DNA of 64,000 bases, from NCBI GenBank assembly GCA_949745755.1, contig CATJZL010000065.1, positions 1,185-65,184 of the forward strand. Direction: 5' to 3'. Below the pieces are notes generated by a model, which was not told the origin of the DNA, did no database searches, and saw only the letters and a program-made list of their open reading frames with translations. The position numbers were made by a program, and so were the translations under genes. This DNA comes from an uncultured Bacilli bacterium. GTDB lineage: Bacteria > Bacillota_I > Bacilli_A > RF39 > UBA660. Shown here piece by piece: positions 17,254 through 52,075 of this stretch (within the stretch, counting starts at the first letter, position 1; each line of letters starts with the position of its first letter).

Positions 17254-19041
17254 TTAACCAATTTCTACAATATCACCAAACATCTCACTAATACTATCAC
17301 AAGTAGAATTACTAGTACTAGAAGTACCCTCATCACATTTATTAAATACAAGTGGAGGCTCCTCTATATATTTGTATACGATATTAAGCTTTTTATTATT
17401 AACAAAATTCTTAGCCTGTTCATTCCAAAAAGAATCAGAAATAATAACTAACTTTTTATCTATATCTAACAATTTCTTTAATATATTTTCCATTTGCTCT
17501 AAATTTTCTAAGGTCGACTCACATACAGAATCATACTCATAACTAATAACAATATACTCATCACTGCTAAGTCTCAAAGTTCCCTCTAATAAAGAACAAA
17601 TCAAATACCCGTATTCTTGATTAAAAACATAGTCATTCAGCTGAATAAATTTTTGCTGCATATCTTTTAAAATTTCCTTAGTAGCATAAACAAATGCATT
17701 ATTCACTCTGATTTCCATAATTTCCTTTAAATTTGAATTAAGAATAGAACACTTCCCATGAGCTTTAGATTCAAAAAAAGAATCAGAAGACTTACTCTCC
17801 TCTTTCTTATCTAAAGAAATAGAATTTTCCTTACTCTTCGATATTTCAGAATCAAGAACAACAGATTGTTTTTGAACTTTAGAATTTGCAAATTTTTTCT
17901 CCTTATTTTGCTCAGTTTCATGTGAAACTTCCTGGGAAATAATTGGTTTTATAGAATGATCTTCTTCAATTATTTCCCGGGAAATAATTGAAACATTTTT
18001 ATTTCCCAAAACAGTAGTAGACATAAAATTTAAAATCATAATTTCAATAAATATTTTAGGATTAGAACTCTTCTTAATATCAAACATTTTATCATTTATT
18101 AAATTAGCAAGAAGTTGATAATTATATCTATCTATTTCTAAAGAATCATGAATATAAGCTTCTACCAATACATCTCTCAAATAATCCAAATACTGAATAA
18201 TAATTTGAATCAAATTTTTACCAATAGAATTCCATTGATCAATTAAATCAATAACTTTCTTAAAATCACCCTCAAATATACAAGTTGATAGCTCCTCTAA
18301 AGAATTTTTTGTCACCAAACCATTTAACTTCAAAAAATCATCTAAACTAATTTTTCCATCTCCATAAACGATCAACTTATCAAGCATACCTAAAGCATCT
18401 CTCATTCCTCCATCAACAACAATGGAAATCTGCTTTAAAACATCATACTCCATTTCCACATTTTCCTTACTACACACCATAGATAAATTATCAATAATAT
18501 TTTGTTCAGTCATCCTGGAAAAGTTGAAAACCTGACATCTAGAAATAACAGTTTCAGGAACCTTTTGTACATCCGTAGTAGCAAGTATAAAAATAATATG
18601 TTCAGGAGGTTCTTCTAAAGTCTTTAAAAGAGCATTAAAAGCTGAAATTGTTAACATATGTACCTCATCAATAATATAAATTTTATATTTCAATTGATTA
18701 GGAACTAAAAGAACTTTATCTCTTAAATTACGAATTTCATCTACACCATTATTAGATGCAGCATCAATTTCAATAATATCCAAACACTCTCTATCAGCGG
18801 AAATTTTGCAACTATTGCAATCACAACATATATCACCATCAATAGCATTTTCACAAGTAACAGCCCTAGCAAACAACTTAGCAGTAGATGTTTTTCCAGT
18901 TCCACGTGGTCCCACAAATAAATAAGCATGCGATATTTTATTATTTTTTATAGAATTTTTCAGAGTTCTAATAATAACATCTTGTCCCACAATTTCACTA
19001 AATTTAGCAGGTCTATATTTTCTATATAGTGTCTGATACAT
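17254..19041 (-). CDS. dnaX: DNA polymerase III tau/gamma subunit.
   Basis: A 595-aa ORF with a Walker A motif (GPRGTGKTS), a C4 zinc module and an AAA+ core, followed by a variable linker. The linker contains in-frame copies of a 22-bp palindrome (see findings). Confidence 0.9.
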   Translation of the reverse strand: MYQTLYRKYRPAKFSEIVGQDVIIRTLKNSIKNNKISHAYLFVGPRGTGKTSTAKLFARAVTCENAIDGDICCDCNSCKISADRECLDIIEIDAASNNGVDEIRNLRDKVLLVPNQLKYKIYIIDEVHMLTISAFNALLKTLEEPPEHIIFILATTDVQKVPETVISRCQVFNFSRMTEQNIIDNLSMVCSKENVEMEYDVLKQISIVVDGGMRDALGMLDKLIVYGDGKISLDDFLKLNGLVTKNSLEELSTCIFEGDFKKVIDLIDQWNSIGKNLIQIIIQYLDYLRDVLVEAYIHDSLEIDRYNYQLLANLINDKMFDIKKSSNPKIFIEIMILNFMSTTVLGNKNVSIISREIIEEDHSIKPIISQEVSHETEQNKEKKFANSKVQKQSVVLDSEISKSKENSISLDKKEESKSSDSFFESKAHGKCSILNSNLKEIMEIRVNNAFVYATKEILKDMQQKFIQLNDYVFNQEYGYLICSLLEGTLRLSSDEYIVISYEYDSVCESTLENLEQMENILKKLLDIDKKLVIISDSFWNEQAKNFVNNKKLNIVYKYIEEPPLVFNKCDEGTSSTSNSTCDSISEMFGDIVEIG

Positions 19042-19647: not shown

Positions 19648-19659
19648 ATTTCCTCCAAA

Positions 19660-19740
19660 AAAAAGTGCACATAAGTTAAAGTGTTAAGGCTGCTATCTTC
19701 CAATCCTGACCTGTTTCCACACAACTTATTGCACAAATAT
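19660..19740 (-). ncRNA. ffs: Small (Bacillus/4.5S-type minimal) signal recognition particle RNA.
   Basis: The minus strand reads GUGCAAUAAGUUGUGUGGAAACAGGUCAGGAUUGGAAGAUAGCAGCCUUAACACUUUAACUUAUGUGCAC. The core CAGGUCAGG-AUUGGAAGAUAGCAGCC matches the conserved SRP RNA domain IV (CAGGUCAGGUCCGGAAGGAAGCAGCC). The 5' and 3' ends pair, and a U8 tract follows. Its position next to tadA and dnaX matches B. subtilis scr. Confidence 0.65.
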
Positions 19741-20245
19741 ATTGTATACGAATTAATATAAAATAGCAATAATTTTTACAAAATAATTTTATCCACAGAG
19801 TAAACAAAGCAAAATATAAAAGAAATAAGAAATAACATTAATAACCAAAATAACTTAACTCATTATTTGAATGGAATAAAAACCGTGTTCCACGTAGAAC
19901 TTAAAAAATAAATTTAACTTAATAAAGCGAAATATAACAATAATTTAAATAAAAAAATTAACATATTAAAACTTATTAAATAATTAATTAAATTTTTACA
20001 CAAATTATGTGTAAAAATTTATTATTTATTGCTATATCTGATCTTATTTATATTCAATTAAAATATTGTTTATTCACAATATTATATTTTATGTTTAAAA
20101 TATTCTTTCATTACTTATCAAAATACAGAACAGTATAAAAAAATTATTTCCTGGGAAATAATTAAATATTATCATAAATACATATTTTTTTAATATAGAA
20201 TTTTTGGATGATACAACTATGTATCTAATTTTTTTTAACTAAAGG

Positions 20246-20300
20246 GATTATAATCCACATTTTTAGTGGATATTTATAATATAGTTTCACGTGAAACATT
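20246..20300. repeat. Composite palindrome unit 1: TAATCCACA..TAGTGGATA followed by GTTTCACGTGAAAC.
   Basis: Read directly from the sequence: a DnaA-box-like pair of half-sites and a 14-bp perfect palindrome with a CACGTG core. Confidence 0.6.
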
Positions 20301-20449
20301 AAGCTGATATTTTATAAAAAGTAATAATAACTTCTTTTAATATATATACACTGCTTACATTTTATTGTATTTTTTTAACACTATACTTTTATTTGAATAA
20401 AATAACAAACAATTAACAATTCTAACACAGTTTGATTTGAATTTCTATA

Positions 20450-20500
20450 ATATAATCCACAAAATTGTGGATTATTAATGTTTCACGTGAAACATTAATA
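20450..20500. repeat. Composite palindrome unit 2: TAATCCACA-aaat-TGTGGATTA followed by TAATGTTTCACGTGAAACATTA.
   Basis: A 22-bp perfect inverted repeat of DnaA-box-like 9-mers is immediately followed by a 22-bp perfect palindrome. It duplicates unit 1 about 200 bp upstream. Confidence 0.6.
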
Positions 20501-20593
20501 TAATTGATGAAATGTACTATATTGACATAATATAAGAATACCGAAATTATTATAGAACATTTGTTTTATTAAGTCATAAAAAAAAGAACATTA

Positions 20594-23071
20594 TTAAATA
20601 ACATTCTCCTTATTGTTTTCCTCAGAGCTTTCTATGGACTCGGACCCTTCCTGAGAATCCTCTTTAGTAACTATAGCAACTGTAGAAACGCTTTGATTAT
20701 CTTTTAAATTGATTAATCTAAGCCCCTGCGTCGCTCTCTTTAGCACCGAAACCTGAGATAATGGCATTCGCATAACAACTCCACTATCTGTTATAATCAT
20801 TAAATCACAATTATCTATATTATCTATTGTTTTAATAGAAACTATAGAACCATTTTTTTCAGTCATATTTAACGCTTTAACGCCCTTACTACCTCTGTGA
20901 GTAAGTCTATACTCATCAATCAATGTTTGCTTACCATAACCCTTTTCTGTGACAATTAGGACATATTGATTAACTTGGACAACTTCTGAACCAACAACAT
21001 AACTATCAACCAAGTCAATTCCTTTAACACCACTGGCACTTCGACCCATAGAACGAACCTCATTCTCATTAAATCTTACCATATGACCATTACTAGCACC
21101 AATAATGATTTCATCAGTACCTGTAGTCTTTCTTACACTAATCAACTCATCCTCATCTTTAAGTGTTATAGCAATTTTTCCACCAGAACGAATCGAATCA
21201 AATTCCTCAAGTGGAGTTCTCTTTATTAATCCACATTTAGTAACAAATACTAAATATTTAATCTCATCTGTATTAGTATTTACATTAACAATTGAAGTTA
21301 TTTTTTCCTCTTTATCAAGCTGTAATAAGTTAATAATAGGAAGTCCCTTAGATTGTCTAGCAAATTCAGGTACTTCATACCCCTTCAATCTATAAACTCG
21401 ACCAAAATTAGAGAAAAATAACATATAATCATGAGTTTTCATATTAACTAAATGCTCTACAAAATCCTCTTCATTTGTAGCCATTCCCTTTATACCAACT
21501 CCACCACGATTTTGTGCCCTATAAACATCACTCTTAACTCTCTTAATATAACCTTTATTTGTAAGTGTAATGATAATATCCTCAACTGGTATTAAAGATT
21601 CATCCTCAATATAATCGATAGCTGTCATATCAATATTTGTCTTTCTCTCATCACCATATTTATTCTTAATTTCAAGCATTTCTTCTTTAATAATACCTAA
21701 AATTTTCTCTTCACTAGCAAGTATAGACTTCAACTCTTCAATCTCAGCAAGGAGAGCTGCAAGTTCATTTTCTATCTTATCTCTTTCAAGACCTGTCAAT
21801 CTTCTTAGTTTCATCTCTAAGATAGCTTGAGCTTGTATTTCACTCAAATTATAAGTATTAATAAGTGCTTTCTGAGCCTCCTCATCACTCTTACTAGACT
21901 TAATTAACTGAATAATCGCATCTATATGATCAAGAGCTATTTTAAGTCCTTCTAAAATATGTGCACGTCGCTCATCTTTATCTAAATCAAACTTAGTACG
22001 ACGTATAATAACCTCTTTCTGATAATCCACATATTTAACAAGAATATCTTTAAGACCAAGTGTTTTTGGCGTACCCTGATCAAGCATTAAAAATATAATT
22101 CCATAATTCATCTGAAATGCAGTATGTTTATATAAATTATTAAGTACCACTTGTGGATTAGCATCTTTCTTCAAAGTAATAGTAATCTTAATTCCATCCT
22201 TCAAATCTGTATGATAGTCACTTATCCCCTCAATAACTTTATTATGAACAAGTTCAGCAACCTTATTTTTTAAATCAAGTGTATTAATACCATAAGGTAC
22301 TTCATCAATAATAATATAATGTTTACCACGTTCCTCTTCTATACGAGCCTTACTTCGAATGGTAATAGAACCCCTACCAGTCTCATAGGCTTTACGAATA
22401 CCACTATTTCCAAGAATAGTTGCACCAGTTGGAAAATCAGGACCCTTAATATACTGCATAAGTCCATCCAAATCAATATCAGGATTATCAATATAAGCAA
22501 CACAACCATCAATCACCTCACTTAAATTATGAGGAGGTATATTAGTAGCCATCCCAACCGCAATTCCCATTGTTCCATTAACTAAAATATTAGGAAAACG
22601 AGAAGGAAGAATTTCAGGTTCTCTTTCTGTCTCATCAAAGTTAGGTTTAAAATTAACCGTATTTTTGTTAATATCTTTTAAAAGTTCTAATGAAATCTTA
22701 GAAAGACGAGACTCTGTATAACGCATAGCAGCAGCACCATAACCCTCTATATTACCAAAATTACCATGACCATCTACAAGCATATATCGATAAGAAAAAT
22801 CCTGCGCCATCCTTACCATAGCTTCATATATAGAACTATCTCCATGAGGATGATATTTTCCCATGACATCTCCAACAATTCTAGCACTCTTCTTATGTGG
22901 TTTATCTGGTGTATAACCAGATTCATACATAGAATATAAAATTCGTCTATGAACAGGCTTTAAGCCATCTCTAAGATCTGGTAAAGCTCGAGAGACAATA
23001 ACACTCATAGAATATTCAAGAAAAGAATCACGAACTTCTTTTACAATACTATTTTTTTCTAATCTATCCAT
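20594..23071 (-). CDS. gyrA: DNA gyrase subunit A.
   Basis: An 825-aa ORF with the active-site region AAMRYTE, QRR loop context and C-terminal beta-pinwheel repeats. Confidence 0.95.
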
Positions 23072-26297: not shown

Positions 26298-26525
26298 TTA
26301 TCTTCTTTTATAACGAACTTCTTCATTTTCATTTGCATAATCAGATTGTCTTTCCATCACTTCCAAATATTCATCAGGAGTCAACATTTTCTCTCTAGTA
26401 TGTTTATAACCACATACAGTACATATTCTACTCTCTATCTTGACATATACCTTTGGTGCATGGACACCAAAGGTATGATGCTCTATAACTCTAAAACTTA
26501 CACTTGAATATTCTTCTTTTAGCAA
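26298..26525 (-). CDS. Questionable small ORF with no ATG start, possibly a gene remnant.
   Basis: The frame is open for about 100 codons but its only candidate start is a TTG with no convincing ribosome-binding site. It contains a single CxxC (CTVCGY). It is not similar to the S4-domain YaaA normally found at this position. Confidence 0.2.
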   Translation of the reverse strand: MLKEEYSSVSFRVIEHHTFGVHAPKVYVKIESRICTVCGYKHTREKMLTPDEYLEVMERQSDYANENEEVRYKRR

Positions 26526-26733: not shown

Positions 26734-27201
26734 TTACATTACCTTATTTACATCAGATCTTCTCTCATTTAATAAATGGACTAAACGAGTCGAACGATAA
26801 ATCTGATTTTCTACCACTCGATAAGAGATAGGTACAACAAGCTCCATATCATTTTCAAAAATAATTCTAGTAGTATTAAATTGTTCAGCAATATAACTCT
26901 TAATTTTATTAACAGCTATCCAAATACACCTTTTATCAGTTGGACTCATAGTAGGAAAAAAAACAATATTTAAATTATCCTGAATAACAATAGGTAATTT
27001 ATAATTAGCACCAATAATAGCCTTAGCCCCTGCTCTCCTACCCTCATAACTACTGCCAAAATATTTGCAACTATGATCTAAAATATCATAACTAGAACAA
27101 GGTATAATATAATCTTGAGAATCCTCAAGTATTTTTGTTTTTCCATCTTCCATAGATATAACAGCAAGAGTTCCTTTATTAATTTCATATTCATTTTTCA
27201 T
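26734..27201 (-). CDS. comK: ComK-family competence transcription factor.
   Basis: A 155-aa ORF. SCKYFGSSYEGRRAGAKA, IVFFPTMSPTDKRCIWIA and ELVVPISYRVVENQIYRST align with the ComK signature blocks SCRFFGSSYAGRKAG, IFLFPTLSSTRPQCGWIS and ELPISYNSFENQVYRT. Confidence 0.7.
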   Translation of the reverse strand: MKNEYEINKGTLAVISMEDGKTKILEDSQDYIIPCSSYDILDHSCKYFGSSYEGRRAGAKAIIGANYKLPIVIQDNLNIVFFPTMSPTDKRCIWIAVNKIKSYIAEQFNTTRIIFENDMELVVPISYRVVENQIYRSTRLVHLLNERRSDVNKVM

Positions 27202-28500: not shown

Positions 28501-28647
28501 AATTATTCCTTCTTTCTTTTATTAATTAATTGTTATTATTATTATAGCTGTGGAAAATGTGGAAAACAATGTTTTTTCTTAAAATTTCATTCTTTGCATT
28601 CCCAAAATATTGTGAATAAAATGTGTATATTCTTTTTTTATTCACAT
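28501..28647. other. oriC downstream part: dnaA-dnaN intergenic region with tandem DnaA boxes and an AT-rich unwinding element.
   Basis: TGTGGAAAA appears twice in tandem at 28549..28566 (reverse complement TTTTCCACA). The flanking sequence is an (ATT)n-like AT-rich run. Confidence 0.6.
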
Positions 28648-30015
28648 CTACCCCACATCTTTTTTCAATTTTTCTATAATATTAGCTAAATCGGTATTAA
28701 CTTGTATTTCCTTTTCAATCTTTGAAATAGAATGCATAACAGTAGTATGATCCTTGCCACCAAATTCTGTTCCTATTTTAGGTAGAGATTCACTAGTTAA
28801 CTTCCTACACAAATACATAGCAATTTGTCTTGGAAAAGCAATATTACTACTACGCTTTTTACTTCGAATATCTTCCACACTTATTTGAAAATATTCAGCA
28901 ACCACTTTTTGAATTCTATGAACATCATTTTTTTCACTAATACCTTTACTAATAAAGTCTTTTAAAGCCTCAATAGCAAGATTTAATGTAATAGAAGTTC
29001 CTCCCATTATAGCAGAATAAGCAACAAGTCTTGTAATGGAGCCCTCAAGTTGTCGAACATCATTTCCCATATTAGATGCAATATATTCAATTACATCATC
29101 AGGAATTTCCTTTTCAAAATTACCTGCTAAAATTTTCCTACGAATAATTTCCACTCTAAGATTAAAATCAGGTGGATAAATGTTAACAGTAAGACCCCAA
29201 CAAAATCTTGTCCGTAAACGTTCCTCTAAAAGTTTTAAATCATCAGGAGAACGATCAGAAGAAATAATAATTTGTTTAGAATCACTATATAATGTATTAA
29301 AAGTATGAAAAAATTCTTGTTGTGTTTGTGTGGCACCACCTAAAAACTGTATGTCATCAATAATTAAAACATCAATATTTCTATATTTATCCTTAAAAAA
29401 ATCAATAAAGTTAAAATTACTACCAGTACTATCCCTTTTATTAATACCTATAAAATCTTGAATAAATTGATCACTGGTAACATAAATAACACGTTTATTA
29501 GAATTTTCCACAATATAATTACCTATAGCATGCATCAGATGTGTTTTTCCAAGACCACTATTTCCATAAATAAATAAAGGATTATACATTTTTCCAGGAT
29601 TTTCAGCGACAGATAAAGCTGCAGCCTGTGCAAATTTATTCGTATTTCCAACAATAAAATTATCAAAAGAGTATTTACTCTCCAAATTATTATTTATTTT
29701 ATTGCTTTTTTCCTGAACAGTTGCCTTTTTTTGTTCCTGCTCTTTTATTTGAAGCTCAATCTCTTTCACTTCATCTTCAAGTAAAAATTCAATTTCACAA
29801 TGATTTCCACAAATATCACTTAAAATATCTTCAATTTTTTCTCCATAATTATCCATTAAATGACTTTTATGAATAGACATAGGAACAGTAATAATCGCTT
29901 TACCATCAATTAATGAATAAAGTTTAGTTTCCCTAAACCATGTTTCAAAAGCGAGAGATGATAGTTCAACTTTTATTTGTTGTAAAAGTTTGGTCCAAAG
30001 GACCTCTGTATTCAT
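28648..30015 (-). CDS. dnaA: Chromosomal replication initiator DnaA.
   Basis: AAA+ core (GNSGLGKTHL) and a C-terminal DNA-binding helix. The true start is probably the ATG at 30015 (MNTEVLWTKLL, with GGGAG 9 nt upstream) rather than the ORF-track start at 30108, which would run into the DnaA-box cluster. Confidence 0.93.
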   Translation of the reverse strand: MNTEVLWTKLLQQIKVELSSLAFETWFRETKLYSLIDGKAIITVPMSIHKSHLMDNYGEKIEDILSDICGNHCEIEFLLEDEVKEIELQIKEQEQKKATVQEKSNKINNNLESKYSFDNFIVGNTNKFAQAAALSVAENPGKMYNPLFIYGNSGLGKTHLMHAIGNYIVENSNKRVIYVTSDQFIQDFIGINKRDSTGSNFNFIDFFKDKYRNIDVLIIDDIQFLGGATQTQQEFFHTFNTLYSDSKQIIISSDRSPDDLKLLEERLRTRFCWGLTVNIYPPDFNLRVEIIRRKILAGNFEKEIPDDVIEYIASNMGNDVRQLEGSITRLVAYSAIMGGTSITLNLAIEALKDFISKGISEKNDVHRIQKVVAEYFQISVEDIRSKKRSSNIAFPRQIAMYLCRKLTSESLPKIGTEFGGKDHTTVMHSISKIEKEIQVNTDLANIIEKLKKDVG

Positions 30016-30432
30016 CCGATCATCTCCCTTCAAGCAATTTCTATACCAACTATAATAAATCAAATTGTGGAAAAAAGAAACAAAAAAATTACAAAAAAAA
30101 GAATCCACAAAAAATCCACAAAGTTATCAACAATTAAATACCTTATAAACTATAATGTTAAATAAGTTATCCACATTTTCCACAAATTAAAATTCACAAT
30201 TGTGAATAGAGTTATAAACAAACATGTGTATTCTGTGGAAAATATATTTTATTACACACAAAAAAATGACCAAAAGAAATATCTTCTTATATATATTCTT
30301 ATACAATATAGAAAGGAAAAACGATAAATAAGAAAAAAGTACTAAAAAAATACATAATATAACAAATTTAATTGACAACTAAAAGATTTTTTTATTATAA
30401 TAAGGTAGATTTATGTCTGGAGGTGGAACTTT
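30016..30432. other. oriC upstream part: DnaA-box cluster between rpmH and dnaA.
   Basis: TTATCCACA at 30167..30175, TTTTCCACA at 30176..30184, a reverse-complement TTTCCACAA at 30065, AATCCACAA repeats at 30102..30120 and TTTTCCACAG (reverse) at about 30232. A -10-like TATAAT lies at 30151. Confidence 0.7.
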
Positions 30433-37191: not shown

Positions 37192-38751
37192 ATGAATGAA
37201 AATCAAGAAGTAGTGTTTTTGCATTTAGATGATATTATACCAAATAGATTTCAACCTCGTGAAGTTTTTGACGAAAAAGCCTTAAAAGAATTAGCTATAT
37301 CAATAAAGGAGCATGGAGTAATCCAACCAATTATTGTTAGAAAAATAAATGAAAGTAAATATGAAATAATAGCAGGAGAAAGAAGATATAAAGCATCAGC
37401 TTTAGCAGGACTTACCCAAATACCTGCAATTATTAGGAATTTGGACGATAAAGAAGCTGCAAAAGTAGCTCTTTTAGAAAATCTACAAAGAAGAAATCTA
37501 AATCCAATAGAAGAAGCAAGAACTTATCAAAAAATAATAGAACTAGATCAAATGACACAAGAAGAATTAGCAAAAACAATGGGAAAAAGTCAGTCAGCAG
37601 TTGCGAATAAACTAAGATTACTCTCTTTAACGGAAGAAGTTCAAAAATCACTATTAAAGGAAGAAATATCAGAAAGACATGCCAGAACCTTACTAAATTT
37701 ACAAGATGCAGAAGAGCAAGTTGAAATGCTAAAAAAAGTAATAAAACAAAAAATGACAGTAAGACAATTAGAAAGTGAAATCAAGGAAAAAACAATAGTA
37801 CAAGATAAAAAAGATGAAATAAAAGATGAACAAGATTTAGCATCAATGATAAATCCAACACCTGTTCCTCTACCAAAAGAAAATAATAAAATAAATAACT
37901 CTTTTGAAACAAAGAAATCTCCTAATTTGATGGAAAACTTTATGAATAAGGAAAATGATATTCCACCCCTACCCTCTCTTCCTAAATTATCAGAAGATAT
38001 TATAAATTATGGAGAAATAAACAATGAAGAGGATGAGGAAGTAGAAGAAAATTCTTTAGATTTAAATGGAAATAATAATACATTGTTGACAAATCCAGTA
38101 AATTTAATAGATTTAAAAAACAATACTAAAGATATAGCAAATATCAATGATACAATAGAACCTATAAAAAAAGAAAACTCAGACCTAGACTCCTTATTAA
38201 ATGTAAAACCAAATTTAATGTCCCTACAAACAGAAGAAAAAGAAGATAAAAAATTAAGCCCAGCAGAAGAAGCATTAAAAGAAAGTGAAGAAAAAAATTA
38301 TGAAAACAAAGAAGACTATTTCAAGGCACCAAATTTAATGTCTATTGACTTACCAACTACAGGAATAACTCAAAAAGACAAATTAACAGATATGTTTTCA
38401 AATCCTACAACATCAAGCAATAGTCTAATAGATTTTGTAAAAAAACCAGCTACAAATCAAGAAAAGAAAGATTCATTAACAAATATGAATCAAACATTAT
38501 TCCACAAAAAGAATGATGAGGAAGACTCAAATGTTCCTTCAAAAAAATCTTTAGGAAGCTTCCTTATGAATGAAAATTTAAAAAATAATGCAAAGAACAA
38601 AGAGGAATATAATATTCAACAAATGGTTAATGAGATACGAAAAACATTAAAAGAATTAGAATCACATGGCGCTAAAATTGACACAGATGAAATGAATTTT
38701 GAAAACCAATATCAAATATTAATAAAAATAGATAAAGACAACAACTATTAG
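37192..38751 (+). CDS. noc: ParB/Noc-like nucleoid occlusion protein with a roughly 300-aa low-complexity C-terminal extension.
   Basis: The N-terminal 200 aa form a ParB N-domain (GERRYKAS) plus an HTH (QEELAKTMGKSQSAVANKLRLL). The rest is rich in Asn, Lys and Glu, with three PNLM(S/E) repeats. The rsmG-noc-soj-spo0J order is conserved. Confidence 0.7.
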   Translation: MNENQEVVFLHLDDIIPNRFQPREVFDEKALKELAISIKEHGVIQPIIVRKINESKYEIIAGERRYKASALAGLTQIPAIIRNLDDKEAAKVALLENLQRRNLNPIEEARTYQKIIELDQMTQEELAKTMGKSQSAVANKLRLLSLTEEVQKSLLKEEISERHARTLLNLQDAEEQVEMLKKVIKQKMTVRQLESEIKEKTIVQDKKDEIKDEQDLASMINPTPVPLPKENNKINNSFETKKSPNLMENFMNKENDIPPLPSLPKLSEDIINYGEINNEEDEEVEENSLDLNGNNNTLLTNPVNLIDLKNNTKDIANINDTIEPIKKENSDLDSLLNVKPNLMSLQTEEKEDKKLSPAEEALKESEEKNYENKEDYFKAPNLMSIDLPTTGITQKDKLTDMFSNPTTSSNSLIDFVKKPATNQEKKDSLTNMNQTLFHKKNDEEDSNVPSKKSLGSFLMNENLKNNAKNKEEYNIQQMVNEIRKTLKELESHGAKIDTDEMNFENQYQILIKIDKDNNY

Positions 38752-38890
38752 GCATAATAAAACTTATGCCTTTTATGATAGAATTTAAATAAAAATAAGA
38801 TTAAGTGACAAAAAGGGACAATTTTGTTTTCAAAAAAACAAATATTTGATACAATATATCTGGTTAGAACAAAAAGAAAAAGGTGATAAG

Positions 38891-39679
38891 ATGGGAAAAA
38901 CTATAGCATTAGTCAATCAAAAAGGTGGAGTAGGAAAAACTACAACCAGCATCAATCTATCTGCATCCCTTGCAGTATTAGGTAAAAAAGTATTATTAAT
39001 AGATTTAGACCCTCAAGGAAATACAACAACAGGAGTAGGAATAAATAAAGCTGACATAGAAAGAAGTATATATGATGTTTTAACAGGAACATGTAAAATG
39101 GAAGAGGCAGTTATACAAACAAAATTTAAGAAATTATCTATTATGCCTGCAACAATCAATCTAGCAGGTCTTGATATAGAATTATTAGAAAAAAGTCAAC
39201 ATGAGCCAGGATATCAAAAACAAAATCAGTTAAAAATAACCCTAGATACAATAAGAGAAGACTATGACTATATAATAATTGATTGCCCACCCTCTCTTGG
39301 ATTGATTACAACAAATGCCCTAACAGCATCAGACTCAGTAATCATTCCAGTTCAATGTGAATTTTTTGCTTTAGAAGGAATTATGCAATTATTAAATACA
39401 ATTATGCTTGCTCAAAAATCCCTAAATCCAACATTACAAATAGAGGGAGTTTTGCTAACAATGTTAGACTCTAGAACCAACTTAGGTTTTGAAGTAGTAG
39501 ACGATATTAGAAAATTTTTTAAAGAGAAAGTATACAATACAATTATTCCTAGATTAATAAGATTAACAGAAGCACCATCACATGGTGAGCCAATAATAGC
39601 CTATGATCCAAAAAGTAGAGGTTCAGAAGCTTATTTAAATCTTGCAAAGGAAGTGATTGAAAGAAATGGAAAACAGTAA
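38891..39679 (+). CDS. soj: ParA/Soj chromosome partitioning ATPase.
   Basis: Deviant Walker A motif KGGVGKTT. The start is chosen at MGKTIAL, which has an AAGGTGA ribosome-binding site. Confidence 0.85.
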   Translation: MGKTIALVNQKGGVGKTTTSINLSASLAVLGKKVLLIDLDPQGNTTTGVGINKADIERSIYDVLTGTCKMEEAVIQTKFKKLSIMPATINLAGLDIELLEKSQHEPGYQKQNQLKITLDTIREDYDYIIIDCPPSLGLITTNALTASDSVIIPVQCEFFALEGIMQLLNTIMLAQKSLNPTLQIEGVLLTMLDSRTNLGFEVVDDIRKFFKEKVYNTIIPRLIRLTEAPSHGEPIIAYDPKSRGSEAYLNLAKEVIERNGKQ

Positions 39680-40556
39680 TATAAAAAGAAAAGCATTAGG
39701 AAAAGGACTAGAAGAACTATTTAATAGTGAACCAATCGATTATACAAAAGTAGAAGAAAAAATAATTGAAGAAACACCAAAAGAAGAAATCAAGAATATT
39801 CCATTAAAAGATTTAAGAAGCAATCCATATCAACCGAGAAAAGTATTTGACGAACAAAAATTAGAAGAATTAGCAGCATCAATAAAAGAACATGGAGTAT
39901 TTCAACCAATCATTGCAAAAAAAAGTATTAAAGGCTATGACATAATAGCAGGAGAACGAAGAGTAAAAGCTTCTCTTTTAGCAGGATTGGAAGAAATTCC
40001 AACAATTATAAAAGACTTTACAGATACAGAAATGATGGAAATAGCTCTTTTAGAAAATCTACAAAGAGAAGATTTAACAGCAATAGAAGAAGCAAATGCT
40101 TATAAAAACTTATTAGAAAATTTAAAAATAACACAAGAAGAATTAGCAACTAGATTAGGAAAAAGCAGATCCTATATAACAAATACAATAGGACTTTTAA
40201 ATCTTCCAATTGAAACTCAAAATCTTATAAATGAAAAAAAAATATCTATGGGACATGCAAAAGTATTAAGTAAATTAGATAATGCTTATCAAATAAAAGA
40301 ATTAACTGATAAAATAATAACAGAAGGATTAAGCGTTAGAGCATTAGAAGATATAACAGGAGAAAATACAGAATATGAAAGAAGAAATAAAGTTCACAAA
40401 AAAGAAAAAACAGAGAATCCTTATAAATATATAGAAGAAGTATTAAATGATCATTTAGGTACAAAAGTAAAAATTAAAACAAATAAAATAGAAATCACTT
40501 TTACAAATACAAATGACTTAAATAGATTATTAGAAATAATGCACCTAGATAATTAA
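39657..40556 (+). CDS. spo0J: ParB/Spo0J.
   Basis: A 299-aa ORF with a ParB box (GERRVKAS), an HTH and a C-terminal dimerisation region. It overlaps the soj stop. Confidence 0.85.
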   Translation: MKEMENSNIKRKALGKGLEELFNSEPIDYTKVEEKIIEETPKEEIKNIPLKDLRSNPYQPRKVFDEQKLEELAASIKEHGVFQPIIAKKSIKGYDIIAGERRVKASLLAGLEEIPTIIKDFTDTEMMEIALLENLQREDLTAIEEANAYKNLLENLKITQEELATRLGKSRSYITNTIGLLNLPIETQNLINEKKISMGHAKVLSKLDNAYQIKELTDKIITEGLSVRALEDITGENTEYERRNKVHKKEKTENPYKYIEEVLNDHLGTKVKIKTNKIEITFTNTNDLNRLLEIMHLDN

Positions 40557-52045: not shown

Positions 52046-52053
52046 AATTATTT

Positions 52054-52075
52054 CCCGGGAAATAATTAAAAAGAA
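52054..52075. repeat. A 22-bp perfect palindrome, AATTATTTCCCGGGAAATAATT.
   Basis: Read directly from the sequence. A perfect copy lies at 17978..17999 inside dnaX, a one-mismatch copy at 20142..20163 and a half-copy at 17927..17942. Confidence 0.7.

Follow-up and report, generated by a model that had tools for sequence, protein, structure and literature searches.

A palindrome-rich island between gyrA and the signal recognition particle RNA gene of an uncultured Bacilli bacterium: a probable origin-proximal parS cluster with Noc- and DnaA-type sites

When a stretch of noncoding DNA close to a bacterial replication origin is crowded with palindromes, a question of identity arises: to which system do the palindromes belong? 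The question is posed by the segment of 64,000 nucleotides analysed here (hereafter, the window), which comes from an uncultured Bacilli bacterium and carries, between gyrA and the gene of the small signal recognition particle (SRP) RNA, an island (19760-20593) dense in inverted repeats. A sequence-only reading of the window had described a palindrome with a CACGTG core in this island as matching no known Firmicute operator, and had proposed that the island is a DnaA-titrating or DnaA-regulated element. The operators checked in that reading (Rex, CodY, CcpA, LexA, Fur, PerR and HrcA) did not include Spo0J or Noc; the CACGTG palindrome is, in fact, the consensus parS, the centromere site of ParB/Spo0J. 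Here we argue that the island is most likely an origin-proximal centromere-like region, namely, a small chromosomal parS cluster. The argument draws on the identity of the sites, their statistical excess, the presence of cognate genes with matching residues, the proximity of the origin, and conservation in 22 of 25 related species.

Binding sites of the island and their potential readers

The parS consensus has been published as TGTTTCAC-GTGAAACA (PMC7383237) and, in the form TGTTNCACGTGAAACA, is credited to Livny et al. 2007 in PMC3245932 and PMC7383237. The core of this site, GTTTCACGTGAAAC, is present in the island in two perfect copies (20284-20297 and 20480-20493) and, with up to two mismatches allowed, has three matches in the 64 kb against 0.09 expected; similarly, the consensus 16-mer with up to three mismatches has three matches against 0.2 expected. 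At no more than two mismatches to the consensus, only two 16-mers are found in the window. One of these, parS-2 (20479-20494, TGTTTCACGTGAAACA), is a perfect consensus embedded in a 28-bp perfect palindrome (20473-20500); the other, parS-1 (20283-20298, AGTTTCACGTGAAACA), deviates at a single, outermost position, and the same variant is seen again in the relatives L010, L011, L015 and L032. When the variant TGTTCCACGTGGAACA of the relatives L022 and L031 is added to the search, again with up to two mismatches, only one further site joins these two, TGTTCCACGTAGAACT at 19886-19901, which differs from that variant at two positions and is probably a decaying parS copy.

The second type of palindrome points to Noc, a paralogue of ParB. 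The Noc-binding site (NBS) has the published consensus TATTTCCC-GGGAAATA, or TATTTCCCGGGAAATA in the joined form (PMC7383237), and the TTCCCGGGAA palindrome at 20145-20160 (TATTTCCTGGGAAATA) resembles such a site, with one mismatch, located in its centre; islands of the relatives hold perfect NBS. The site is part of the one-mismatch copy of a 22-bp palindrome that had been reported at 20142-20163 and is indeed there (AATTATTTCCTGGGAAATAATT). Since the CACGTG palindrome is parS and the TTCCCGGGAA palindrome is NBS-like, the primary identity of the island would be that of a ParB/parS cluster and not that of a DnaA-titrating element.

Perfect NBS are also present elsewhere in the window, at 17971-17986, inside dnaX (17254-19041, minus strand), and at 52049-52064. 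The site in dnaX sits in a 28-bp perfect palindrome (17965-17992), at codons ~352-357 (peptide IISREII); a degenerate parS/NBS composite (AGTTTCATGTGAAACTTCCTGGGAAATA, 17914-17941) lies in the same gene, about 45 bp from this perfect NBS, and NBS with at most one mismatch occur at a similar position of dnaX in L017, L021, L024 and L027. The other site belongs to a perfect 22-bp NBS palindrome (AATTATTTCCCGGGAAATAATT, 52046-52067) in a short spacer between convergent genes, so that sites of the Noc type are also scattered beyond the island.

Does the same genome encode proteins that could read these sites? The genes for a Noc-like protein, ParA and ParB (37192-40556) stand in the same order as noc-soj-spo0J of B. 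subtilis. The parB/spo0J product (39666-40556, plus strand) is a canonical ParB: it has the N-terminal sequence ALGKGLEELF with the LGKGL motif, a GERR box, a helix-turn-helix (HTH) and a C-terminal dimerisation domain, and its best match among solved structures is B. subtilis Spo0J (6SDK, 206 bits). The ATPase gene parA/soj (38846-39679, plus strand) and the gene of the 519-residue Noc paralogue (37192-38751, plus strand; best solved-structure match Noc 7NFU, 216 bits) complete the set. As established by Jalal et al. (PMC7383237), the specificity residues are RTAG in ParB and QKKR in Noc, the change from RTAG to QKKR switches binding from parS to NBS, and one lysine, at position 179 or 184, is enough for NBS specificity. 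The ParB encoded in the window carries R173/T179/N184/G201 (Caulobacter numbering), i.e., residues of the parS type, and the Noc paralogue carries Q173/K179/S184/R201, i.e., residues of the NBS type, as read from GKSQSAVANKLRLLSL...ISERHAR; the Q, K and R are invariant in 10 homologues from the lineage, with S, A or V at position 184. Thus, each of the two site types has a plausible dedicated reader.

By its sequence, the Noc paralogue appears to be Noc-like in binding, yet it is not a canonical Noc. The N-terminal amphipathic membrane-targeting helix, which is conserved in all Noc proteins examined by Adams et al. (PMC4331003), is absent: just 2-5 residues precede the ParB N domain (from about residue 6), residue 3 of the protein aligns to residue 24 of 7NFU, and an upstream in-frame start is impossible. 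The short N-terminus is shared by all 10 aligned homologues. Further downstream, the paralogue has a low-complexity, N/E/K-rich linker of ~270 amino acids with the short conserved motifs NYGEI, DYFxAP(N/D)LMS, SLIDF and SLGxxLM, followed by a C-terminal domain of ~45 amino acids that is conserved across homologues; this architecture is common to more than 120 homologues of 450-535 amino acids in the lineage. The Noc of B. subtilis is about 283 amino acids long.

The location of the island is that of an origin-proximal element. Cumulative GC skew reaches its minimum at ~30-31 kb, where gene orientation switches as well, beside dnaA (28648-30108, minus strand), which is flanked by the DnaA-box clusters of oriC (28549-28646 and 30124-30242); genes are on the minus strand to the left of ~30.3 kb and on the plus strand to the right of it. 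The minus-strand order is dnaA, dnaN, a comK homologue, recF, gyrB, gyrA, the island, the small SRP RNA gene, tadA, dnaX, ybaB and recR, and the succession of gyrA, island and SRP RNA gene makes the island noncoding DNA located ~10 kb from oriC, as marked by dnaA and the skew minimum.

The island in related genomes

How widespread is this arrangement? Among 80 gyrA loci that were fetched, one genome per species, 25 come from related uncultured Bacilli and 55 from other Bacillota. Downstream of gyrA, 22 of the 25 related loci have 2-10 parS, compared to at least two in only 4 of the 55 others; in total, the related group holds 106 parS and 52 NBS, and the other Bacillota 16 and 1, respectively. 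Nearly all sites of the related group are in the spacer downstream of gyrA, mostly before the SRP RNA gene. Three related loci have no cluster, and in two of these, L012 and L033, the contig runs out less than 300 bp from the gyrA stop codon.

In several relatives, the sites are organized in tandem units, each with one NBS and one parS (7.8 x 64 bp in L014, 5.6 x 126 bp in L016, and 8.1 x 82 bp in L023), and related patterns are seen in L032, L011, L015, L029 and L031. The spacers of these units are unrelated between species, whereas the 16-bp core positions are 90-100% conserved and the flanks are not, yielding the symmetrised consensus sequences aATGTTTCACGTGAAACATt for parS and AAATTATTTCCCGGGAAATAATTT for NBS. 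The combination of conserved cores with unrelated spacers suggests selection on the binding sites rather than on the repeat units as such or on RNA pairing. Unlike the islands of these relatives, the island of the window yielded no tandem array when searched for one. The contigs of L012, L033, L026, L029 and L032 end inside or just after gyrA-proximal repeat arrays, which suggests that short-read assemblies break at parS/NBS tandem arrays and that metagenome-assembled genomes (MAGs) contain too few of them.

On a much shorter evolutionary scale, the metagenome strains L001-L009 are 99.94% identical to the window over 20 kb, with 100% identity in gyrA. Six of the 13 strain differences (6-7 single-nucleotide polymorphisms, SNPs) fall in the 946-bp spacer 19648-20593, against seven in the other 19.5 kb, so that the spacer would evolve ~17 times faster than the flanking genes.

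With respect to the general make-up of the island, the sequence-only reading holds up well. The island, very AT-rich (19% GC, with ~27% in the window), is truly dense in palindromes: four of its inverted repeats have arms of 10 bp or more, where Markov-simulated islands predict 0.14, and these are four of the nine such repeats in the entire window. The largest open reading frames (ORFs) have 43-50 codons, in agreement with the reported lack of any ORF of 60 amino acids or more, and the only Rfam match is the SRP RNA itself, in line with the claim that there is no other recognisable structured RNA. A hidden RNA gene was sought with an Rfam scan at permissive E-values, which returned the SRP RNA alone and no other match with E below 0.29. 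The 43-codon ORF at 20007-20138, considered as a potential hidden protein gene, encodes an AT-rich, hydrophobic, low-complexity sequence, and the length of the island varies from 83 to 2281 bp among the relatives. The idea that the island is a remnant rRNA promoter region gains no support: the island contains no rRNA-related sequence, and the synteny of gyrA, island and SRP RNA gene is kept across the lineage; in one Lysinibacillus locus, an rRNA operon takes the place of the island downstream of gyrA. The inverted repeat that had been placed at 19991-20019 with 12-bp arms exists but is longer, with 14-bp arms (19989-20002 and 20008-20021, TAAATTTTTACACA-aatta-TGTGTAAAAATTTA; RNA fold of -15 kcal/mol, z -4 to -5). 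One possibility is an AT-rich bidirectional hairpin, shielding the SRP RNA gene against read-through from gyrA; another is a pair of DnaA-like boxes with two mismatches each.

The borders of the island are formed by gyrA (20594-23071, minus strand; NF004043, 1152 bits) and by the SRP RNA gene (19659-19738, minus strand; Rfam, 51 bits), which is preceded by the promoter-like sequence TTGCTA-17-TACAAT (19769-19741). No tRNA genes were found in the 64-kb window. Proteins identical to those of the window occur in animal and human gut metagenome assemblies, and the nearest genome representatives are MAGs of uncultured 'Bacilli' or 'Tenericutes' of ~1.3-1.5 Mb, with a best gyrA identity of 85%. Closer to the origin, dnaN and recF are separated by an inserted gene of the ComK family (26734-27201, minus strand; Pfam PF06338, E 1.6e-41), which is an unusual site for a competence regulator in a genome of ~1.5 Mb; the 75-residue ORF that follows this gene has no Pfam match. 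A comparatively GC-rich inverted repeat (26447-26476, ATACCTTTGGTGcatggaCACCAAAGGTAT; arms of 12 bp) lies between recF and this small ORF and may be a terminator.

DnaA boxes and alternative explanations

What, then, is the role of the DnaA boxes that had motivated the proposal of a DnaA-titrating or DnaA-regulated element? The boxes are real and enriched, although their details differ somewhat from the initial description. The perfect box TTATCCACA is at 19789-19797 (plus strand), not at 19788-19796, about 20 bp upstream of the promoter-like -35 hexamer of the SRP RNA gene. A DnaA-box-like 9-mer, TTATTCACA (20070-20078, plus strand), is a variant that also occurs as two boxes between dnaA and dnaN. 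Two composite units, in which box-like 9-mers face each other beside a parS, are both present. In the unit next to parS-2, the 9-mer TAATCCACA at 20453-20461 (plus strand) and 20466-20474 (minus strand) forms a head-to-head pair (20452-20475), which is a 24-bp palindrome with 11-bp arms, 4 bp from the parS. The unit next to parS-1 (20251-20273) is degenerate: TAATCCACA at 20251-20259 (plus strand) is paired with the weak partner AGTGGATAT, leaving arms of only 6 bp, ATCCAC and GTGGAT (20253-20271), and the right arm is 11 bp from the parS. The pattern ATCCAC-N6/7-GTGGAT occurs in the 64 kb only at 20253-20271 and 20455-20472, against 0.01 expected. Altogether, the noncoding 946-bp spacer near oriC contains five 9-mers within one mismatch of TTATCCACA, with ~0.3 expected, compared to eight in the two oriC spacers and 21 in the remaining 62 kb, which makes the island the second densest cluster of DnaA boxes in the window after oriC.

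Several orthologous islands are enriched in boxes as well (eight in L011, all on one strand; four each in L025 and L031; two each in L017 and L021), and those of L010, L014, L016, L018, L020 and L022 have none. In a 7-mer enrichment analysis across islands, with parS and NBS masked and words derived from the SRP RNA set aside, the top over-represented words were TTTCCAC, ATCCACA, TCCACAA, TATCCAC and TTCCACA, which are words of the DnaA box and make it the third enriched motif, next to parS and NBS. In 9 of 24 species, boxes stand at a distance of 0-8 bp from parS; they number 18 of the 34, whereas random placement yielded 2.9 on average and never more than 10 over 5000 trials. This adjacency is illustrated by TGTTTCACGTGAAACT-TTATCCACA in L011 and by TTATCCACA-n-TGTTTCACGTGAAACA in L017, L021 and L024. 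A box adjoining parS is therefore a recurrent, albeit not universal, feature of the lineage, and it is this enrichment and adjacency that lend the DnaA proposal partial support: the boxes belong to the island, but as accessories to what is primarily a parS cluster. The pair TAATCCACA-N3-7-TGTGGATTA was also considered, and rejected, as a general partner of parS or as an established operator. When metagenomes were scanned for it, at least 120 unrelated contigs of every GC content were matched; among the matches listed, no parS stood within 150 bp of the pair and this locus was not represented, as is consistent with chance at that database size. Binding of DnaA to the head-to-head TAATCCACA pair is plausible and forms the weakest link of the present account.

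Could the island nevertheless be, first and foremost, a cluster of DnaA boxes of the datA type or of the type described in B. subtilis, serving to titrate DnaA or subject to its regulation, in which the head-to-head boxes would matter most? The box density, second only to oriC, and the recurrence of boxes in orthologous islands are what such an element would predict, and oriC-proximal DnaA-box clusters (DBCs) are known in B. subtilis (PMC3245932). However, it is parS and not the box that is conserved in nearly every island, many islands are box-free, the inverted pair is confined to the species of the window, and the perfect parS and the NBS-like site are left unexplained, so that we regard this possibility as improbable. 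Somewhat less improbable, but still unlikely, is the explanation that the box-like 9-mers beside parS are half-sites for ParB or sequences duplicated along with the parS units. Indeed, TTTTCCACA agrees with the parS half-site TGTTCCAC at 7 of 8 aligned positions, P. aeruginosa ParB binds half-parS heptamers, according to PMC10419367, and the boxes within a species lie on one strand, as duplicated units predict. Against it speak the commonest parS-abutting form, which is the exact DnaA consensus TTATCCACA (twice in L011 and once each in L017, L021 and L025), the variant TTATCAACA (three times in L031, and in L024), which lacks the CCAC/TCAC core of the parS half-site, and the occurrence of the adjacency in nine independent species, among which both orientations and differing spacers are represented.

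An action of the palindromes at the RNA level, as hairpins (terminators or stabilisers) in a long 3' untranslated region of gyrA or as part of an unannotated small RNA, appears very improbable. The palindromes do fold stably (-12 to -20 kcal/mol, z -3 to -5), and two of them were flagged as terminator-like on the plus strand, but such folding is expected of any DNA palindrome, and these sole terminator-like matches are the inverted repeats of DnaA boxes on the strand opposite to all neighbouring genes. Furthermore, the exact 16-base sequence is kept across 24 species without compensatory changes, the flanks being free to vary; this is not the pattern left by conserved pairing, and neither the lack of an Rfam match nor the range of island lengths among the relatives favours an RNA. 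Least probable of all, to the point of being hardly credible, is a second or displaced replication origin: the 19% GC content and the DnaA boxes are compatible with one, but the skew minimum and the switch of gene orientation are beside dnaA, where eight boxes cluster, and the genes on either side of the island share the same strand and the same skew.

There are, however, several observations that weigh against the parS-cluster interpretation or limit its scope. The island has just two good parS and no tandem array, and may therefore be a reduced version of the clusters of the relatives; the scan covered 64 kb of the genome, and further parS clusters are possible elsewhere. The central C-to-T change in the NBS-like copy at 20145-20160 disrupts its palindrome. 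The 6-7 SNPs of the spacer avoid all motifs, but their number is too small for significance. Only ~9 of 24 orthologous islands contain DnaA boxes, the head-to-head TAATCCACA pair is limited to the window's species and absent from all 24 relatives, and TAATCCACA, which is not among the box variants at the oriC of this genome, occurs three times inside gyrA. Finally, binding by ParB, Noc and DnaA, as well as the interplay of these proteins, is predicted from the sequence.

A possible composite centromere

By analogy with the known ParB/Spo0J systems, the following sequence of events can be envisaged for the parS cluster. Dimers of ParB would nucleate on the two parS (20479-20494 and 20283-20298), close as CTP-dependent clamps and spread over the neighbouring DNA; together with ParA/Soj and, probably, SMC, the resulting partition complex would organise and segregate the origin region ~10 kb away. 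The Noc paralogue might nucleate at sites of the NBS type, such as 20145-20160, within or near the ParB complex, and DnaA might occupy the boxes beside parS, serving as a local sink or sensor or coupling initiation to segregation. Recruitment to, or titration at, the island of Noc and DnaA would link segregation, Noc function and the control of initiation.

The sites and proteins have counterparts in B. subtilis, where the Spo0J/ParB system has the same 16-bp parS palindrome in an origin-proximal location, a ParB with LGKGL, GERR and HTH, and a ParA encoded nearby. The origin-proximal parS sites of B. subtilis are mostly intragenic. There are eight of them, single and dispersed (PMC3245932), in contrast to the window and its relatives, where a single dedicated noncoding spacer, bounded by gyrA and the SRP RNA gene, gathers the sites, which form, in the relatives, tandem arrays of up to 8-10 copies. 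The B. subtilis Noc system, too, has its counterpart here, with the same 16-bp NBS consensus, a Noc paralogue with Q173/K179/R201 encoded upstream of parA-parB, and scattered perfect copies of the site (17971 and 52049). Noc-binding sites of B. subtilis are reportedly the subject of a 2009 study by Wu et al. They are scattered around the chromosome (PMC4331003; the system is also treated in PMC8429893), unlike the many NBS of this lineage that are interleaved one-to-one with parS in tandem units, and the B. subtilis Noc differs from the paralogue described here, which has no N-terminal membrane-targeting helix and has a linker of ~270 amino acids.

The combination of parS with DnaA boxes also has precedents. 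In Caulobacter crescentus, the parS region, which lies within a few kb of the origin, contains DnaA boxes, and binding of DnaA there enables segregation (Mera, Kalogeraki and Shapiro 2014, as cited in PMC6399470). The likeness to the present island lies in the boxes within an origin-proximal parS region; the differences are that Caulobacter belongs to another phylum and that, in this lineage, putative boxes lie directly beside parS (0-8 bp) in ~9 of 24 species, and two of them form a head-to-head palindrome in the window. As in the DBCs of B. subtilis and in datA of E. coli, the boxes of the island form a noncoding, consensus-like cluster near oriC, and deletion of the oriC-proximal DBCs of B. 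subtilis is synergistic with deletion of spo0J (PMC3245932); DBCs are, however, not described as interleaved with parS, whereas the boxes in this lineage take second place to parS and are missing from many orthologous islands. The head-to-tail arrays of the relatives, with a palindrome of the ParB family in each repeat, further resemble the tandem-repeat centromeres of plasmids, such as sopC of the F plasmid, which consists of 12 x 43-bp repeats. In sopC, there is one site type for one protein, whereas the relatives alternate two paralogue-specific sites per unit and do so on the chromosome. No published description of interleaved parS/NBS arrays, or of parS downstream of gyrA, was found in a search conducted largely outside subscription journals.

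Taken together, on every feature examined in the sequence, the island is a member of the class of chromosomal parS clusters, and membership in the canonical Noc/NBS class fails on one defining feature, the N-terminal amphipathic helix. The one-to-one interleaving of NBS and parS in the relatives and the recurrent parS-abutting DnaA box make this more than another ordinary parS cluster. The lack of the membrane-targeting helix, along with the long disordered linker and its conserved motifs, indicates that the Noc paralogue may be a second centromere-binding clamp. It is thus tempting, if only tentatively, to consider the centromere of this lineage a composite array in which each unit pairs one site for ParB with one for the Noc paralogue in alternation, a DnaA box frequently adjoining parS, and in which the helix-less Noc is a second clamp co-assembled with ParB, not a membrane-tethering nucleoid-occlusion factor. 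Such an arrangement of the Noc paralogue and ParB could represent a functional state between ParB and canonical Noc, with DnaA recruited to the same complex.

Each of the three elements, parS, NBS and the DnaA box, is well understood singly; of their regular interleaving in one origin-proximal island, no description was found in the literature searched. Should the island be loaded by ParB, the helix-less Noc paralogue and DnaA alike, two paralogous CTP-gated clamps would nucleate within tens of bp of each other and would have to coexist or block one another, and segregation, Noc function and initiation control would be tied to one locus. The arrangement bears on the evolution of Noc from ParB and, in addition, provides simple sequence markers for the centromere in widespread uncultured gut bacteria. 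For the window itself, the more modest implication is that the island should be annotated as a chromosomal parS region, to which NBS-like and DnaA-box elements are accessory. In the lineage as a whole, both the putative composite centromere and the Noc of atypical architecture merit the attention of specialists.

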